Shown here: in pieces, positions 12,781 through 20,049 of the stretch | Layout: each line of letters starts with the position of its first letter | Numbering within the stretch: position 1 is the stretch's first letter | Assembly (NCBI GenBank): GCA_902602695.1 | Contig: CACKRO010000001.1 | Span: 30,672 to 94,671, forward strand | DNA: 64,000 bases | Reading direction: 5' to 3' | Source: an uncultured Alphaproteobacteria bacterium | Lineage (GTDB): Bacteria > Pseudomonadota > Alphaproteobacteria > HIMB59 > GCA-002718135 | Made by a program: the position numbers and the translations under genes | The notes under the pieces: generated by a model | What the model was told of the DNA's origin: nothing | The model's input: the letters and a program-made list of their open reading frames with translations, nothing else | Database searches by the model: none

Positions 12781-12969
12781 ATGGAAATACAAAAAAAAAT
12801 TACAGTTCTAAGCGAAAACTTAAATAATCTAAGATCATCTTTAGAAGATTTTAGGGATCATCATAATTCCAAGAATCAAAAAATTAAAAATCTTGAAAAT
12901 GAAATTAAAAATTTACGAAAACAAATGTTAGAGTATATTGATGAATTGGAACTTCTAATTAAAAAATAA
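12781..12969 (+). CDS. small coiled-coil protein (ZapB/DUF4164-like position)
   Basis: Heptad-rich 62 aa; divergent from tkt and upstream of zapA. Confidence 0.6.
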   Translation: MEIQKKITVLSENLNNLRSSLEDFRDHHNSKNQKIKNLENEIKNLRKQMLEYIDELELLIKK

Positions 12970-12971
12970 CT

Positions 12972-13391
12972 ATGCCTTTTTATAAGACTAAAATTTTAAA
13001 TAGAGAAATTTCATTAGAATATGAAAAAAAAGATGAAAAAAATATCATAGATTCAATTAATTTAATTAATGAAAAAATTGATAATAAACTACAAAATCCA
13101 AAATATTCTAATGGAAAAATAAGTGATACTATATTGTTATCACTTCTCTCCATTGAGCTTCAAGCAGAGCTTTCAGAAAAATTAAATATACAAAAAAATT
13201 CAGAAATAAATGATACCAAAAATGAAGAATATCTTAAGAATAATTTAGAACTTAAAGATAAAATATTAAAACTACAAAATGAAAAAAAAATTTTAGAAGA
13301 TGAAAAATTAAAATTAGATCAAGAATTTGATGAAATAAATAAAAAAGTAGAAGGTTTAATTGATATGATTAAGAATTCTTACTATGAATAA
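12972..13391 (+). CDS. zapA: cell division protein ZapA-like
   Basis: N-terminal ILNREISL beta segment, LLSLLSIEL, C-terminal coiled coil; conserved position before ygfA. Confidence 0.65.
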   Translation: MPFYKTKILNREISLEYEKKDEKNIIDSINLINEKIDNKLQNPKYSNGKISDTILLSLLSIELQAELSEKLNIQKNSEINDTKNEEYLKNNLELKDKILKLQNEKKILEDEKLKLDQEFDEINKKVEGLIDMIKNSYYE

Positions 13392-13965
13392 TATTAAAGA
13401 TGAAAAATTAATTATCAGAAAAAAACAAAAAATTATCAGAGATATGATTTTTAATAATAAGCCATCTCATTTTACTTTATCTTTGTTCAATAAACTTTTT
13501 GAAAAAATTAACTTTAAAGAAATTAATACAGTATCTAGTTTTATTTCTATAAACTCTGAAATAAATACAAAAGAGCTTAATAATCTTATCTTTATTAAAA
13601 ATAAAATTTTATGTCTTCCAGTAATTGAAAAAAAAAATAGTCATTTAATCTTTAAGCAATTTAAGAATGAAGAGAATTTCGTAAAAGGGTATATGAATAT
13701 ATCAGAACCTCAAAATAAAAATAAAATTTTAAATCCAGAACTAATTTTTGTACCTTGTTTAGCTTTTGATCATAAGGGAAATAGATTAGGTTATGGGGGA
13801 GGATATTATGACAGGACTTTTGCTTATTTAAATAAAATTAATCATAGTTTCATATCAGTAGCATATGCATATGAAGAACAAAAGCTAGAATACATACCTG
13901 TAGACAAATTTGATTTTAAAGTGGATTATGTTATTACTGAAAAAAATTTATATAGTTTTAAATGA
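13384..13965 (+). CDS. ygfA: 5-formyltetrahydrofolate cyclo-ligase
   Basis: VPCLAFD..GNRLGYGGGYYDRT. Confidence 0.92.
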   Translation: MNNIKDEKLIIRKKQKIIRDMIFNNKPSHFTLSLFNKLFEKINFKEINTVSSFISINSEINTKELNNLIFIKNKILCLPVIEKKNSHLIFKQFKNEENFVKGYMNISEPQNKNKILNPELIFVPCLAFDHKGNRLGYGGGYYDRTFAYLNKINHSFISVAYAYEEQKLEYIPVDKFDFKVDYVITEKNLYSFK

Positions 13966-14753
13966 AAATTCTTTTTATAGGTGATATTGTTGGCAAGGCT
14001 TCACGAAAAAAAATTAAAGAAATTATCCCAACTCTTAAATCTAAATATAATACAGACTTAATTATTGCGAATGGTGAAAATGCTACTTCTGGATATGGAC
14101 TTTCAAAAAAGGATGCAGAAGAATTATTTTCTAGCGGATTGGATCTACTTACACTTGGAAATCATGCATGGGATCAAAGAGATATGTTATCTTATATTGA
14201 AGAAAATCCAAAAATAATAAGAGCGTTGAATTACCCTGAAGGTGTTCCTGGAAAAGGTTTTTATAAGATTGAACTTTTAAATGGAAAAAAAATTATCGTA
14301 GTACAAGTAATGCTTAGATTATTTATGAATATGTCATTAGATGATCCTTTTAAAAGTATAATTGAATTTCTTCAAAAAGAAAAGTTAGGTGGTACTTGTG
14401 ATGGAATAATAATTGATATGCATGGTGAAGCAACCTCTGAAAAAAAAGCTTTTGGATATTACGTTGATGGAAAAGTTTCAGCAGTTTTAGGTACACATAC
14501 TCATGTACCAACAGGAGACAGCGTTATTTTACCTAGAGGTACAGCCTATCAAACAGATGTTGGAATGTCAGGTGATTATAATTCAATAATTGGTTTCGAT
14601 ATAAATAATCCAATCCACGGATTTGTTAAGGGGTATAGGGCTGAAGGTAGATTTACGCCGGCTACTGAAAACATAACTATATGTGGAGCTTTAATAGACA
14701 TCGATATTAATACTGGTTTAGCTAAAAAAATCACCCCAATTCAAGAGACATAA
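13962..14753 (+). CDS. ymdB: TIGR00282/YmdB family metallophosphoesterase
   Basis: GDIVG, NGEN, GNHAWD, DMHGEATSEK, GTHTHV. Confidence 0.9.
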   Translation: MKILFIGDIVGKASRKKIKEIIPTLKSKYNTDLIIANGENATSGYGLSKKDAEELFSSGLDLLTLGNHAWDQRDMLSYIEENPKIIRALNYPEGVPGKGFYKIELLNGKKIIVVQVMLRLFMNMSLDDPFKSIIEFLQKEKLGGTCDGIIIDMHGEATSEKKAFGYYVDGKVSAVLGTHTHVPTGDSVILPRGTAYQTDVGMSGDYNSIIGFDINNPIHGFVKGYRAEGRFTPATENITICGALIDIDINTGLAKKITPIQET

Positions 14754-14760
14754 TTTACAT

Positions 14761-14784
14761 ATATTAGACACATTTATCTAATAT
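14761..14784. promoter_or_regulatory. inverted repeat ATATTAGA-N8-TCTAATAT upstream of yebC
   Basis: Perfect 8-bp arms read directly; function unknown; AT-rich background. Confidence 0.35.
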
Positions 14785-14832
14785 TTTATATCTTTACTAA
14801 CATCGGATTAAATATTTATAAATCTACTCTTA

Positions 14833-15582
14833 ATGGCAGGTCACTCAAAATTTAAAAATATTATGCATCGTAAAGGTGCGCAAGATAAAAAAAGAGCAAA
14901 AGTTTTCTCAAGACTTGGAAGAGAAATTTCTGTCGCTGTTAAAGTAGGAGGTGAAGATATTGAAAGTAATATCAGATTAAGATCTGCAATTGCTTCAGCC
15001 AAGTCTCTAAATATGCCAAAAGATAATATTGAGAGGGCAATTAAAAAAGGTCAAGGAAATGATCCTGATAGTAATTATGAAGAAGTAAGATATGAAGGTT
15101 ATGGCCCTGAAGGTATTGCAATAATAGTTGAGGCACTTACAAATAATAAAAATAGAACAGCTGCTGAGATTAGGTCCTCTTTTAGTAAACATGGAGGTAA
15201 TTTGGGTGAAACAGGAAGTGTTAGTTTTGGTTTTGATAGATTTGGAAATATTACTCTTGATAAAAGTTTAGTAAAAGAAGATCAGCTTCTAGAATTTCTT
15301 ATAGAAAATAATACAGAAGATTATGAAATTAATGATACAGAATATTCAATATACTGTGATCAAAATGATTTGCATGAACTTAATGATAAAATAATTAAAA
15401 AGTACGGTCAGACTAGCTCTGCAAATTTAATTTGGAAAAGTAAAAATAATATAAATATTGGAAAAGATACAGCAGATAAACTATTTAAATTACTTGAAGT
15501 TTTAGAAGACAATGACGACGTTCAAGTTGTATCATCAAATTTTGAAGTTGAAGATAATGTTCTATCTTCACTCACAGCCTAA
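14833..15582 (+). CDS. yebC: YebC/PmpR family protein
   Basis: MAGHSKFKNI, YEGYGP, LEDNDDVQ. Confidence 0.95.
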   Translation: MAGHSKFKNIMHRKGAQDKKRAKVFSRLGREISVAVKVGGEDIESNIRLRSAIASAKSLNMPKDNIERAIKKGQGNDPDSNYEEVRYEGYGPEGIAIIVEALTNNKNRTAAEIRSSFSKHGGNLGETGSVSFGFDRFGNITLDKSLVKEDQLLEFLIENNTEDYEINDTEYSIYCDQNDLHELNDKIIKKYGQTSSANLIWKSKNNINIGKDTADKLFKLLEVLEDNDDVQVVSSNFEVEDNVLSSLTA

Positions 15583-15596
15583 TGAAAGGAACATAA

Positions 15597-15890
15597 ATGC
15601 CGGATAAAGCCTGGAAAAAAAGAGAGAGAGATGTTGCAAGTTATTTCAACGGGACAAGGACACCTTTGAGCGGAGGTAATGGTAAAGTAACAAGAGCTGA
15701 TGTAATTCATGAAGACTTATTTATAGAATGTAAATTAAGAGCAAAGCATACAGCAATTAGTTTATGGGATGATACAGCAAAGCTGGCCAAAGAGGAGGGT
15801 AAGACACCAGTGATAGCATTATGTGAAAAAAATAGACCAGGTTTTTGGGTTATGGTTCATAGTAGTGATCTTGAAAAAATTAAAAAATAA
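15597..15890 (+). CDS. Hjc-like PD-(D/E)XK nuclease, putative Holliday junction resolvase
   Basis: E10-R...R21..S25-G...D35...E44-C-K46 matches the archaeal/phage Hjc catalytic pattern; strong SD (GAAAGGA) upstream; sits at the ruvCAB position. Confidence 0.72.
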   Translation: MPDKAWKKRERDVASYFNGTRTPLSGGNGKVTRADVIHEDLFIECKLRAKHTAISLWDDTAKLAKEEGKTPVIALCEKNRPGFWVMVHSSDLEKIKK

Positions 15891-15895
15891 TTAAT

Positions 15896-16609
15896 ATGGC
15901 AGATATAAATAGTGCTAATTTATCGACAGAAGCTCCAGATTTTTCAATGCTTGCTTTATTTATGCAAGCTGACCTTGTAGTTAAATCTGTAATTATAATT
16001 TTAATCTTAGCCTCTCTTTATTCCTGGAATGTAATAATTTCAAAAATTTTAAGAATTAGACAATTAAAAAAACTTGAAAAAGAATTTGAAGATATTTTTT
16101 GGTCTGGAAATTCTTTTGAAGATTTATATGAAACTTTAAACTTTAATCAGAACGATCCAAAATCAAAATTATTTTGTGCTGCAATTTTAGAGTGGAAAAA
16201 AAGTAAACATCAATATGAAAATGATAATTCAGATATAAATTCTTTAAAGGATAGAATGATGAGATCAATGACAGTTGTGTTTAATAAGGAAAGTGAAAAT
16301 GTTGAGAGAAATTTAACTTTTCTTGCAACTGCTGGATCAACTGCACCGTTTATAGGATTATTTGGAACAGTTTGGGGCATAATGAATAGTTTTAAATCTA
16401 TCGCAATTGCACAAAATACCAATTTAGCAGTAGTTGCACCAGGTATTGCAGAGGCGCTATTTGCAACAGCTTTAGGGCTTTTTGTAGCTATACCAGCTGT
16501 GGTTGCGTACAATAAAATTTCAAACGACCTATCAAAATACTTTATATCCTTAGAAACATTTATGGATGAATTCTCAACAATTTTTTTTAGACAATTAGAG
16601 AAAAAATAA
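15896..16609 (+). CDS. tolQ: TolQ
   Basis: GSTAPFIGLFGTVWGIM, PGIAEAL. Confidence 0.95.
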   Translation: MADINSANLSTEAPDFSMLALFMQADLVVKSVIIILILASLYSWNVIISKILRIRQLKKLEKEFEDIFWSGNSFEDLYETLNFNQNDPKSKLFCAAILEWKKSKHQYENDNSDINSLKDRMMRSMTVVFNKESENVERNLTFLATAGSTAPFIGLFGTVWGIMNSFKSIAIAQNTNLAVVAPGIAEALFATALGLFVAIPAVVAYNKISNDLSKYFISLETFMDEFSTIFFRQLEKK

Positions 16610-16610
16610 A

Positions 16611-17039
16611 TTGATTACTTCAAATAATTTAAACAAACGTAAGAAGCGTAGGTACACTCAAATGAGTGAAATTAATGTTACACCTTTTGTAGATGTTATG
16701 CTTGTTTTACTAATTGTTTTTATGGTTACTGCACCTCTTCTAACAGTTGGAATAAAAGTCGATTTGCCAAAGGTTAAAGCTACTGCATTAACAGATATAA
16801 AAGATCCAATTGAGATAACCGTTAAGTTAGACGGAGAAGTCTACATTGGAGAATCAAAGGTTGAAGTAGAAAATTTGATTCCCCGACTAAACGCTATTAC
16901 TGAACAAAACACTGAAGCAAGGATCTATATAAGAGGTGATAGAGTAGTAGCTTATGGGAGGATTATGGAAATAATGTCTATAATAAATTCTGCAGGATAT
17001 ATTAAAGTTGCTTTAATTACTCAAAATCTTGAGCAATAG
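16611..17039 (+). CDS. tolR: TolR
   Basis: SEINVTPFVDVMLVLLIVFMVTAP. Confidence 0.93.
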   Translation: MITSNNLNKRKKRRYTQMSEINVTPFVDVMLVLLIVFMVTAPLLTVGIKVDLPKVKATALTDIKDPIEITVKLDGEVYIGESKVEVENLIPRLNAITEQNTEARIYIRGDRVVAYGRIMEIMSIINSAGYIKVALITQNLEQ

Positions 17040-18110
17040 ATGGACCGTATAAGCTATAATAGTTTAAAAATAATAAATTTTTTTGAAAACTTAAATCCTA
17101 AAATATCTGGAGTTATTTTTTCAACACTAATACATTTAATTATCCTTTTATTTTTGGTTGGCTTGCCAAATTTTTTTTCTCCAAAAGAAATCTATGTTCC
17201 AAATTTAATACCTATAGAAATACTTAATATTGATGAAAATACCAATTTGAAAAAATCTAATACTGAAAAACCAGAAAATAAAAATAAGGAAACAATTACT
17301 AAGCAAAAAAAATTTAATTCATCAGATCAATTAGAAGTAAAAAAAAACGTTGAAATAAATAAAACTGAAATTGAAGAAAAAACTAATCCTCATCAACCAA
17401 TTTTGGAAATGAAACAATCTCCAAATTTAGAAGTTAAGGAAACAAAAAAAATAGTTATCAAAGAAAAGGAAAGTTTAGAGGTTAAAAAAAAAGTAGAGAC
17501 AATTAAAACTCAAATAATTAAACCAAAACTCAAGCCAAAGCCAAAAATTATAAATAATGAAAATATTAAATCAGATTTAGATGTTGAAACAAACATAAAG
17601 GATAAACCAAAGTTAGAAACTGATAAGACCATATCTAAACCAAAGCCAAAACCCGAAAAAGATTTTAGTATAGCATCAATGCTCAAAGATTTAAGAAATG
17701 AAAAAACAAATATGGTTCAAAATGAAGTTAAAGAAGAAATCGAAGAAGTTGATAACAAAAGTACAGATGACACTGATGATAATGTTATGCTATCAATATC
17801 TGAAATAGATATGTTAAGGCAGCAATTATCTTCTTGTTGGAATGCTCCGGCAGGAGCAGTGATAGAAAGAGGAATGCAGGTAACGATTTCAGCTAAAGTA
17901 TTACAAAATATGAAGGTTTCATCAAATAGTGTTCGTATTGTTGACACAAATATAGCTAAAACTAACCCATTTTATGGACCAATTACAGATAGTGCTATGA
18001 GAACTCTCTTAAACCCAGAATGCACACCATTAAAACTTCCAAAAGATAAATATAATCTATGGAAAAATCTTACAATTACTTTTGATTATAGTATTATGAA
18101 AGGATATTGA
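17040..18110 (+). CDS. tolA: TolA-like cell envelope protein
   Basis: N-terminal TM, K/E/P-rich linker, C-terminal CWNAP...C domain; synteny. Confidence 0.8.
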   Translation: MDRISYNSLKIINFFENLNPKISGVIFSTLIHLIILLFLVGLPNFFSPKEIYVPNLIPIEILNIDENTNLKKSNTEKPENKNKETITKQKKFNSSDQLEVKKNVEINKTEIEEKTNPHQPILEMKQSPNLEVKETKKIVIKEKESLEVKKKVETIKTQIIKPKLKPKPKIINNENIKSDLDVETNIKDKPKLETDKTISKPKPKPEKDFSIASMLKDLRNEKTNMVQNEVKEEIEEVDNKSTDDTDDNVMLSISEIDMLRQQLSSCWNAPAGAVIERGMQVTISAKVLQNMKVSSNSVRIVDTNIAKTNPFYGPITDSAMRTLLNPECTPLKLPKDKYNLWKNLTITFDYSIMKGY

Positions 18111-19426
18111 TGAAAAAAGTTTTTTTAATAACCCTTTTTTTGTTTTATAGTTTTAATGTCTATTCATTAGAAGTGACCCTAACACAAGGTAGTGTGAAGC
18201 CAACTCCAATTGCTGTTACAGAGCTATATTCAAAAAATTCACAATTAACAAAAGTAGGTAAAAATATTTCAACTGTAATTTCTGATAATTTAGAAAGATC
18301 TGGTCTTTTTTTACCAATTGATCAAAGATCATTTATACAAGATAATGTATCATTGGCAAACAAGCCAAGATTTGAAGATTGGAAACTAATAAAGGCTCAA
18401 CATCTAGTTTCTGGAAAAATTTCAACAAACAGTGGAAAAATATCTGTAGAATTTAGATTGTTTGATGTCTTTCAACAAAAACAAATAGTGGGAAAAAAAT
18501 ACGAGACTAGTGAAAAAAATTGGAGAAGAGTTGCTCATATTATTTCAGATTCCATTTTCAAAAATATAACTGGCGAAGGTGGTTACTTTGATACAAGAAT
18601 AGTTTATGTTGCTGAGACAGGTCCAAAAGAAAATAAACAAAAAAGATTAGCAATCATGGATCAAGATCAATCAAACCATCGCTTTTTAACAGATGGTTCC
18701 TATCTAGTTTTAACTCCAAGGTTCTCACCAAATTCTCAAAAAATTACTTATATGTCTTACGCAAATAGAAATAATCCGCGAGTTTATATTTTTGACATTG
18801 AAACAGGTAAGCAAGAAATTGTAGGTGAGTTTCCTGGAATGACATTTGCCCCACGTTTTTCTCCTGACGGTAATCAAATCGTTATGTCTTATACTGATCC
18901 AGAAATTGGTAATTCTGAAATTTATATTCTTGATCTAAAAACAAGAATTTCAAAAAGAGTTACTAATAATTCCGCAATAGATGTTTCTGCAAGTTTTTCA
19001 CCTGATGGAAAAAAAATAGTTTTTAATTCAGATAGAAGTGGACGAAGGCATATATATGTAAGTGATGATAATGGAAAAAATATTAAAAGAATTAGCAGGG
19101 AAGCAGGAAGTTACTACACACCAGTCTGGTCTCCAAGGGGTGATATGATTGCATTCACTAAACAAGAAGGAGGGCAATTTTATATAGGTGTTATGGAGGT
19201 TGATGGCTCAAATGAAAGAATGATTGCAAAATCATTCCATGTAGAGGGCCCAACATGGGCACCAAATGGAAGATTTTTAATGTATTTTAAAGAAGAGAGA
19301 ACTGCTGAAGATGGATCTGGAGGTAAATCCAGTCTATATTCTATTGATTTAACTGGTTTTAATGAAAGAAAAGTAATAACTCCATTAGGAGGGTCTGACC
19401 CAGCTTGGTCTCCTTTAATGCATTAA
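18110..19426 (+). CDS. tolB: TolB
   Basis: Signal peptide, PD40 repeats (PRFSPDG, PVWSPRG), C-terminal SDPAWSP. Confidence 0.95.
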   Translation: MKKVFLITLFLFYSFNVYSLEVTLTQGSVKPTPIAVTELYSKNSQLTKVGKNISTVISDNLERSGLFLPIDQRSFIQDNVSLANKPRFEDWKLIKAQHLVSGKISTNSGKISVEFRLFDVFQQKQIVGKKYETSEKNWRRVAHIISDSIFKNITGEGGYFDTRIVYVAETGPKENKQKRLAIMDQDQSNHRFLTDGSYLVLTPRFSPNSQKITYMSYANRNNPRVYIFDIETGKQEIVGEFPGMTFAPRFSPDGNQIVMSYTDPEIGNSEIYILDLKTRISKRVTNNSAIDVSASFSPDGKKIVFNSDRSGRRHIYVSDDNGKNIKRISREAGSYYTPVWSPRGDMIAFTKQEGGQFYIGVMEVDGSNERMIAKSFHVEGPTWAPNGRFLMYFKEERTAEDGSGGKSSLYSIDLTGFNERKVITPLGGSDPAWSPLMH

Positions 19427-19527
19427 TTCAATATAATACAAAAAAGTATACGAAATTCTAAAAAAAATGTTAAGGAATTCCAATTAATTTAGTATATCTA
19501 CTTAAAGTATTAAGGGAGCAATTATTT

Positions 19528-20049
19528 ATGTTTTACAAGTTTTTTATCTCTATATTTATGGTTATTTTTGTTGCTGCCTGCGCAACGACACCAAAAGACT
19601 CAGCTGACTCTTCGGGCTCAGGGTCCGGCAGTTCTGGAAGTGATGTATCTTCCGAAGGAAGTATTACTGAAACAGCAGGAAGTGGAATAGTTTCTGGATC
19701 ACAAGAAGATTTAATAGTTAATGTTGGTGATAGAGTATTTTTTGGATATGATAGTTCAGATTTAGACTCAGACGCTTTGGAGTTACTACAAGATCAAGTT
19801 GCATGGCTTAAGCAGAATAGTGATGTTTCTGTTTCAATTGAAGGACACTGTGATGAAAGAGGAACTAGAGAATACAACTTAGCTCTTGGTGAAAAAAGAG
19901 CTCAAGCTGTTAAAAATTATCTAATTGGATTAGGAATCAACCCAGATAGAGTTTCAACCATTAGTTATGGCAAGGAAAGACCAGCTGTTGTTGGATCTAA
20001 CGATGGAGCATGGGCTCAAAATAGACGATCAGTAACTATAGTTAACTAG
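19528..20049 (+). CDS. pal: peptidoglycan-associated lipoprotein Pal
   Basis: Lipobox VAAC, GHCDERGTREYNLALG, SYGKERP. Confidence 0.96.
   Translation: MFYKFFISIFMVIFVAACATTPKDSADSSGSGSGSSGSDVSSEGSITETAGSGIVSGSQEDLIVNVGDRVFFGYDSSDLDSDALELLQDQVAWLKQNSDVSVSIEGHCDERGTREYNLALGEKRAQAVKNYLIGLGINPDRVSTISYGKERPAVVGSNDGAWAQNRRSVTIVN

Follow-up and report, generated by a model that had tools for sequence, protein, structure and literature searches.

The window analysed here, a stretch of 64,000 nucleotides (nt) from an uncultured alphaproteobacterium of the order HIMB59 (contig CACKRO010000001.1 of GenBank assembly GCA_902602695.1, hereafter G000), carries between yebC and tolQ an open reading frame (ORF) of 97 amino acids (aa; 15597..15890, + strand, ATG start), which we describe as the gene for an Hjc-like PD-(D/E)XK nuclease and putative Holliday junction resolvase on the basis of its match to the phage family PHROG 2002, its sequence motif, an AlphaFold2 (AF2) model, structure matches, and the ratio of nonsynonymous to synonymous substitution rates (dN/dS). 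Its product is probably a homodimeric Hjc-like resolvase that cuts the four-way junctions made by RecA, with RecG as the only motor detected. We also lean, if by a modest measure, toward the wider proposition that the whole order carries out RecA-dependent recombination without RuvA, RuvB, RuvC, or RadA by way of this 97-aa phage-derived resolvase of Hjc type, probably together with RecG, the gene standing precisely in the place of ruvCAB-ybgC and still being exchanged with the order's own phages, in which copies 75–77% identical are found.

By sequence, the protein belongs to the PD-(D/E)XK superfamily and to PHROG 2002. The match to the latter, annotated "Holliday junction resolvase," covers ORF residues 3–94 and profile positions 16–112 of 130 (E 3.6e-10), the homologues at loci L037, L040, L046, and L048 hit the same profile, and an exhaustive HMMER search returns 887 cluster representatives at E<=1e-3, pointing to a large family. 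The superfamily motif E...D...(D/E)xK is present as E10, D35, and E44xK46. An initial annotation, made from the DNA letters of the window and its reading frames, had singled out E10, R21, S25-G26, D35, E44-x-K46, and a C-terminal W57...A64...G68-K69-x-P71 pattern; every one of these residues is there, and the motif goes beyond chance, E10, R21, S25, G26, D35, and K46 being invariant, along with W6 and K69, across 61 aligned family members (40–74% identity), in which K7, R11, A14, L24, E44, L56, A64, E67, P71, and G82 are conserved at the level of 90% or more. Catalytic candidates are E10, D35, E44, and K46, and candidates for basic, DNA-binding roles are K7, R11, R21, and K69.

The likeness to Hjc itself can be followed residue by residue. 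For this comparison, relatives of two PF01870-positive archaeal genes were collected and 20 sequences aligned as a true-Hjc set; hhalign of the ORF family against these 20 gives a weak match (probability 9.7%, E 0.0033), which is nevertheless collinear across 92 columns and pairs E10-R11 with E11-R12, R21 with R27, S25-G26 with S31-G32, D35 with D40, and E44xK46 with E53xK55 of Hjc. The essential residues of Pyrococcus furiosus Hjc, as listed in a review (PMC10956419), are E9, R10, R25, D33, E46, K48, and K81; six of these seven positions have conserved counterparts in the ORF (E10, R11, R21, D35, E44, and K46), and the invariant K69 is a candidate counterpart of K81. The family consensus E-SD-ExK also agrees with the Hjc motif E-[S/P/V]D-EVK as given in an excerpt of PMC8805305.

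Other families fare poorly. Among Pfam profiles, RuvC (PF02075), RusA (PF05866), and RecU (PF03838) all fail to match the protein, as does PDDEXK_15 (PF24608), a family of putative phage PDDEXK endonucleases that matches 4 of the 61 relatives weakly (best E 2e-4). A sub-threshold Pfam match to Fip1 is read as chance. NCBIfam and PADLOC return no match, and neither do sequence searches of the PDB, whether queried with the protein alone or with the profile of its family. In public annotation the homologues are nearly always "hypothetical protein," although one JGI/IMG member is already named "Holliday junction resolvase," its cluster, that of P0018, having a representative 88% identical to the ORF.

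The predicted structure points in the same direction. The AF2 model (pLDDT 90.4, pTM 0.83) has a helix at residues 4–16, short strands at 19–20 and 35–36, a strand at 41–48, a helix at 53–66, and a strand at 70–77, and it displays the PD-(D/E)XK topology as defined in PMC8805305. Foldseek against the PDB places archaeal Hjc structures in all of the top 10 positions (E 4e-3 to 2e-2, probability 0.97–1.0, TMq 0.48–0.60). In a VIA structure search, which is independent of Foldseek and covers 48,161 chains, rank 1 falls to P. furiosus Hjc (1gef; Z 7.8, root-mean-square deviation 3.4, 87 residues aligned), rank 2 to Archaeoglobus fulgidus Hjc (2wcw; Z 7.3), rank 4 to Hje (1ob8; Z 6.6), and rank 6 to Hjc_15-6 of a Thermus phage (7bgs; Z 6.1), and the rows at Z>=5 are mostly PD-(D/E)XK-type nucleases. 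Among predicted viral structures (BFVD), 20 matches reach E<=1e-3, the highest TMq being 0.77, and 7 of the 50 matches listed are named Holliday junction resolvase. Fold and candidate active site, as modelled, thus resemble Hjc most among solved proteins, Foldseek and VIA both placing Hjc, the fold proposed at the outset, closest to the AF2 model.

A homodimer is likewise predicted, with a score of 0.70 against 0.00 for the best control. For comparison, 20 of 30 proteins whose solved structures are pairs attained this mark, as did 1 of 23 solved as single chains. At least 95% of the contacts coincide between runs, and the partner pLDDT is 81–82. The score may in part reflect likeness to the solved Hjc dimers.

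The ORF is a real, single-copy core gene under strong purifying selection. Among 61 related genomes, protein searches find a homologue, one copy each, in 52, with all 10 relatives of high quality (>=90% complete) included; the nine relatives without a match are assemblies 55–88% complete, and one of these, G052, contains withheld bases. The order yebC-ORF-tolQ-tolR is kept at all 14 loci examined in the order, 12 of them from the same genus and two from the order's other family, one of the latter in a 99%-complete genome of a single contig. From one family to the other, the ORF is 68–71% identical, as opposed to 56% for yebC, 48–49% for tolQ, and 47–50% for tolR, and dN/dS lies at 0.018–0.049 in 12 of 12 comparisons with same-genus orthologues. 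Syntenic orthologues 74–78% identical are also found in public records, under the names Pelagibacteraceae bacterium and uncultured Alphaproteobacteria. Taken with the small genome, the low GC content of the window (29.5%), and the marine origin of the sequencing runs in which the stretch occurs, they suggest that the organism is a member of the SAR11 group (Pelagibacterales).

These conservation data contradict one alternative, to which we give scarcely any credence, namely that the ORF is the remnant of a phage (a moron), newly arrived or in decay, that serves no host function. The family is indeed largely phage-borne, phage copies 75–77% identical do exist, and the GC content of the ORF is slightly above the local mean; a decaying remnant would sit badly, on the other hand, with a fixed position in two families, with dN/dS of 0.02–0.05, and with a gene that is better conserved than its housekeeping neighbours. 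Nor is any integrase, phage, or mobile-element gene found by Pfam among the adjoining genes, just as the initial annotation had stated. Its remark that the ORF is GC-richer holds only mildly: the value is 36.1% (23.5% at third codon positions) in a window of 29.5%, but pal is higher still (37.9%), and we dropped GC content as a sign of foreign origin because it is too weak.

In the window, the order is ymdB-yebC-ORF-tolQ-tolR-?-tolB-pal by Pfam, all on the + strand: a ymdB-like metallophosphoesterase gene, the second upstream anchor (13962..14753; PF13277, E 8.7e-94); yebC of the TACO1/YebC family, the first (14833..15582; PF01709, PF20772); the ORF; tolQ (MotA_ExbB), the downstream anchor (15896..16609; PF01618); and the remainder of the Tol-Pal cluster, comprising tolR, an ORF in the position of tolA, tolB, and pal (16611..20049; ExbD, TolB_N/PD40, and OmpA). 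The 14 nt between yebC and the ORF contain a Shine-Dalgarno-like AAAGGAA (15585..15591, + strand, read from the sequence), 5 nt upstream of the ATG, and a further 5 nt separate the ORF from tolQ; coordinates and spacing are exactly as first reported. At one locus of the order's other family (L024, genome G037), the last 4 nt of the match to yebC fall within the beginning of the ORF match (1835–1839), which suggests overlapping, translationally coupled genes there in place of the 14-nt gap.

For outgroups, eight regions around ruvC from other Alphaproteobacteria were considered, in which 110 ORFs were picked and the 57 nearest ruvC run against Pfam. Two of the eight have the full arrangement: L033 reads ymdB-yebC-ruvC-ruvA-ruvB-thioesterase(4HBT)-tolQ-tolR-?-tolB, and L031 reads secA-yebC-ruvC-ruvA-ruvB-thioesterase-tolQ-tolR-?-tolB, so that the ORF occupies the exact place of ruvC-ruvA-ruvB and the thioesterase gene (ybgC). 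In L027, yebC-ruvC-ruvA-ruvB is followed by other genes, in L032 a methyltransferase gene separates yebC from ruvC-ruvA-ruvB, and in L030 ruvCAB has neither yebC nor tol genes beside it; L026, L028, and L029 are uninformative, L028 having no assignments and the other two lacking an assigned ruvA/ruvB or ruvC, a consequence of simple ORF picking. The proposal that ruvCAB and ybgC were replaced in situ is thus supported computationally, the four middle genes of L033 and L031 being swapped for one ORF, and since the order's two families share yebC-ORF-tolQ-tolR, the replacement is older than their split.

The same position invites the thought that the ORF encodes a Tol-Pal accessory protein standing in, directly upstream of tolQ, for the ybgC thioesterase. 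The gap to tolQ is short, there is no terminator-like site in 14600–16700, and ybgC has that very place in the outgroups. (Promoter-like sites number 11 where 10.8 are expected, a scan that says nothing on operon structure.) We nonetheless find this account very improbable, given that the protein has no similarity to thioesterases, carries an invariant nuclease motif on a predicted Hjc-like fold, and has phage relatives with no Tol-Pal genes nearby.

If a resolvase has taken over this slot, the genes that formerly filled it might still reside elsewhere in the genome, and the initial annotation had named an intact ruvABC as one of three observations that would refute its idea, a fold other than that of Hjc being another; neither has emerged. 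RuvC (PF02075) is found in none of 121 genomes of the order and in none of the 22 of high quality, among these the single-contig genome 99% complete; ruvB (TIGR00635) is found above the cut-off in 0 of 121, with only weak AAA+ matches (best 35.1 bits, vs 299); and ruvA (TIGR00084), searched for at E<=1e-6, is found in none of the 121, and over the cut-off in 0 of 5 chosen genomes. Neither RusA nor RecU turns up in five genomes of the order, and RadA/Sms (TIGR00416), at E<=1e-50, is likewise missing from five (G000, G037, G061, G040, and G062). RecA, on the other hand, is present in 39 of 41 genomes (21 of 21 of high quality), RecG in 103 of 121 at E<=1e-120 (20 of 22 of high quality), and RuvX/YqgF in 5 of 5. 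The controls behaved as expected in named reference genomes. With RuvAB and RadA not found, RecG is the only branch-migration helicase detected, which leaves RecG standing of the two motors, RecG or RadA, that had been put forward.

These gene absences have a practical side as well. The genes ruvA and ruvB are used as phylogenetic and completeness markers, and their absence may lower completeness estimates across the order.

Across the class, the picture is less exclusive. In a class-wide sample, RuvC is present in 289 of 301 genomes (a tally that includes two genomes flagged as unpublished, G346 and G172), and the ORF family in 4 of 301, all four of this order. Eight other alphaproteobacterial genomes lack RuvC without having the family. 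Loss of RuvABC is not unique to the order; replacement by the ORF family is.

The wider distribution of the family is predominantly viral. A scan with one narrow peptide pattern, drawn from a 10-sequence alignment and yielding locus counts that are lower bounds, finds at least 8 loci in species-representative genomes. Two of these are SAR11-type with yebC and tolQ alongside, and the other six lie in metagenome-assembled genomes of Planctomycetales, Desulfamplus, Thermotogae, Bacteroidales, Methanosarcinales, and Thermoplasmata. Five of the loci outside SAR11 were scanned with PHROGs. In L034, a RecE-like exonuclease, a Bet/RecT annealing protein, a single-stranded DNA-binding protein, and an endonuclease VII/HNH-like protein lead up to the homologue; in L037, a Cas4-type exonuclease and a primase-polymerase precede it and a tail-completion protein follows; in L039, it stands between an exonuclease and a DNA polymerase; L040 has a DNA methyltransferase nearby, and L038 only a sigma-factor match.

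In the viral collection IMG/VR, the same pattern identifies at least 26 loci that encode relatives, and yebC and tolQ are found at none of the 23 viral loci checked; tblastn against a phage collection gives only 2 records. Four IMG/VR contigs (L046, L047, L048, and L050; 31–35% GC) encode proteins 75–77% identical to the ORF; the contigs probably belong to phages that infect this bacterial group, and the closeness of their copies suggests recent exchange between host and phage. The homologue lies ~300 nt upstream of the large terminase gene in L046, L048, and L055, and ~60 nt upstream in L050; phage enzymes that debranch or resolve DNA typically lie just before terminase. Directly upstream of the homologue in L046 is a Mom-like DNA-modification gene.

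A maximum-likelihood tree, for which the starting set was 33 sequences (26 distinct; L041, L051, L068, and L069 were excluded as partial or weak), gathers the SAR11 and near phage sequences into one clade (99/94 support) within a mainly viral family, with the phage group nested among the SAR11 sequences (94/91). The labels SAR11 and viral each require 2 changes, neither forming a single clade. As the tree is midpoint-rooted, with key forks at 88–94% and neither label monophyletic, it does not settle the direction of host-phage transfer. The simplest reading is a phage origin of the ORF family with later exchange between hosts and phages. The original description of the gene as probably virus-derived is borne out insofar as its relatives are phage-borne.

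A number of observations weigh against our reading of the protein as the order's junction resolvase. The PD-(D/E)XK fold serves many functions, and it is by analogy of sequence and model that we infer junction cleavage. Pfam Hjc membership is not reached by sequence: PF01870 does not match the protein at E<=10, a genome search with PF01870 at E<=1 finds nothing at the ORF, BLASTP against true Hjc is not significant (E 6.1), and the hhalign probability given above is low. The Hjc assignment of the initial annotation is accordingly upheld in motif and nearest fold and falls short at the Pfam Hjc threshold, with similarity scores that are moderate. Foldseek gives no PDB match for the model at E<=1e-3; exonucleases and tRNA-splicing and cap-snatching endonucleases of PD-(D/E)XK type also reach Z 5–6.6 in VIA; and the VIA scores, 7.8 at best, may mean merely a common arrangement, as the tool itself warns for Z below 8. 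The predicted dimer interface, at ~200 contacts in a protein of 97 residues, is unusually large and could be an artefact in part.

Counter-arguments of a second kind come from the genomes. Junction-cleaving activity has been reported for RuvX/YqgF in some bacteria (PMC10956419); with RuvX/YqgF present in each of the five genomes searched, the order may have a resolvase besides the ORF product. G000 itself comprises 35 contigs of a small genome (1.28 Mb), is 74% complete, and yields neither recA nor recG, though nearly all its relatives carry both, so that the claims of absence rest on the relatives. The eight genomes of other Alphaproteobacteria with no RuvC match and no ORF family (G186 and G333 of family f47, G244 and G372 of f105, G383 of f119, and G234, G324, and G343) are all at least 92% complete. 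In the five of these small-genome bacteria searched for it (G186, G333, G244, G372, and G383), ruvB is missing as well, and loss of RuvABC alone thus does not require this replacement. On the supporting side, transcripts are weak evidence for expression of the ORF: marine metatranscriptome contigs from 4 runs in 3 studies span all 30 bins of 14700–16700, and two of them run from yebC into the ORF, these being assembled contigs from RNA libraries that possibly contain DNA.

Taken on their own, such points could favour a PD-(D/E)XK nuclease with another job, acting on flaps, forks, R-loops, or damaged DNA or in a restriction-like or addiction role, with junctions being rare or else handled by RuvX/YqgF or by dissolution with a helicase and a topoisomerase. 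A fold common to many non-resolvase nucleases, the unmatched Pfam Hjc profile, the presence of RuvX, and the existence of other Alphaproteobacteria that live without both RuvABC and the ORF family would all fit such an account, which we regard as rather unlikely. Set against it are the facts that the best-matching sequence family and the best-matching structures are all junction resolvases; that six of the positions on which Hjc depends have aligned, conserved counterparts; that the relatives sit in phage recombination modules and right before terminase; that PADLOC has no defence match for the protein and Pfam no methylase or antitoxin partner gene among its neighbours; and that the locus is exactly the ruvCAB slot.

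Under the resolvase reading, the protein would be a small, metal-dependent, structure-specific endonuclease of PD-(D/E)XK type, probably a homodimer, that does RuvC's job in this order. We infer junction-specific cleavage, function as a dimer, a partnership with RecG, and the direction of transfer alike. The dimer would bind a four-way junction made by RecA, with E10, D35, and E44 holding a metal ion and K46 completing the active site, and paired nicks would free the two duplexes; RuvAB being missing, RecG would take over branch migration or delivery of the junction. As to history, a phage-type resolvase gene would have entered the yebC-ruvCAB-ybgC-tolQ locus in the order's ancestor, and ruvC, ruvA, ruvB, and the thioesterase gene would have been lost. 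Thereafter it would have been inherited vertically as a single-copy core gene while a close copy circulates in low-GC marine phages.

How does such a system compare with those already described? With RuvC and RuvABC, the ORF would share its presumed cellular task and the chromosomal slot after yebC. The fold of RuvC is RNase H-like and unrelated to PD-(D/E)XK. Archaeal Hjc (1GEF, 2WCW; PF01870) is, like the ORF product, a small PD-(D/E)XK protein, its structures are the closest solved ones, and its E/D/ExK and R-R residues align; it is a homodimer, as is predicted here, and each is the presumed main cellular resolvase of a lineage without RuvC. The ORF product differs from it in length (97 aa vs ~120–130), in the spacing from D to ExK (9 vs 13 residues), and in falling short of the Pfam Hjc threshold, and also in its bacterial host, in having phage proteins as nearest relatives, and in having no known PCNA-type partner.

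Closer in kind are the phage Hjc-like resolvases and PHROG 2002, as shown by the profile match and by the neighbours of the relatives, phage genes for replication, recombination, and packaging. The Hjc_15-6 protein of Thermus phage Tth15-6 (PDB 7BGS/7BNX) has a motif E-SD-EVK, as described in PMC8805305, that resembles the E-SD-ExK consensus of the ORF family. In contrast to these proteins, the ORF is a fixed chromosomal core gene amid housekeeping genes, and the resolvase name of PHROG 2002 is an annotation and not a tested function for the subfamily to which the ORF belongs.

Two bacterial precedents for dispensing with RuvC bear on the proposal. In Escherichia coli, RuvABC can be dispensed with when the prophage resolvase RusA acts together with RecG (PMC3403352); here, too, a small, dimeric, phage-derived resolvase would replace RuvABC, and RecG would be its likely motor. 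The fold of RusA is unrelated, however, and RusA was not found in the five genomes searched, and the E. coli case is a laboratory suppressor whereas the present one would be the natural state of an order. In Firmicutes and Mollicutes, RecU, a resolvase of the PD-(D/E)XK superfamily, takes the place of RuvC (PMC3403352, PMC10956419). RecU works with retained RuvAB, which is undetectable here, and the ORF product has no RecU match in Pfam.

The kind of enzyme is thus already known, and what appears to be new is the in-situ replacement, throughout an order of abundant, free-living bacteria, of the whole RuvABC resolvasome, together with the close phage copies. We found no paper on RuvABC loss in SAR11 or on this gene in a literature search that reached no supplements and missed many subscription papers. 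A table in PMC3686209 lists a core SAR11 "Putative Holliday junction resolvase," an entry that could be this gene or YqgF/RuvX, the two not being distinguishable there.

Two further features of the neighbourhood may be recorded. The 356-aa ORF in the tolA position (17040–18110) has no Pfam match at E<=1e-5; repetitive and rich in lysine and glutamate, it is probably a divergent TolA. Farther upstream, at 12781–13965, two small ORFs of coiled-coil appearance (62 and 139 aa) precede the gene for 5-formyltetrahydrofolate cyclo-ligase, an arrangement that presumably recalls the proteobacterial zapB/zapA-(6S RNA)-ygfA; the ORFs abut, leaving no space for a 6S RNA gene.

RuvAB is close to universal in bacteria, and SAR11-like bacteria rank with the ocean's most abundant cells. 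If our reading is correct, the order would provide an ancient, natural equivalent of the "rus" suppression by which ruv mutants are rescued in the laboratory, a bacterial lineage that uses archaeal-type junction resolution, and a case in which the bacterial resolvasome proves wholly replaceable by a minimal system. It would also help to explain why marker-based estimates understate the completeness of these genomes. At 97 aa, the protein would recommend itself to biochemists as a minimal enzyme for resolving junctions, and its close copies in phages indicate that a core DNA-repair gene moves between host and phage. For highly recombining SAR11 populations, the proposal would supply a testable account of how their junctions are resolved.

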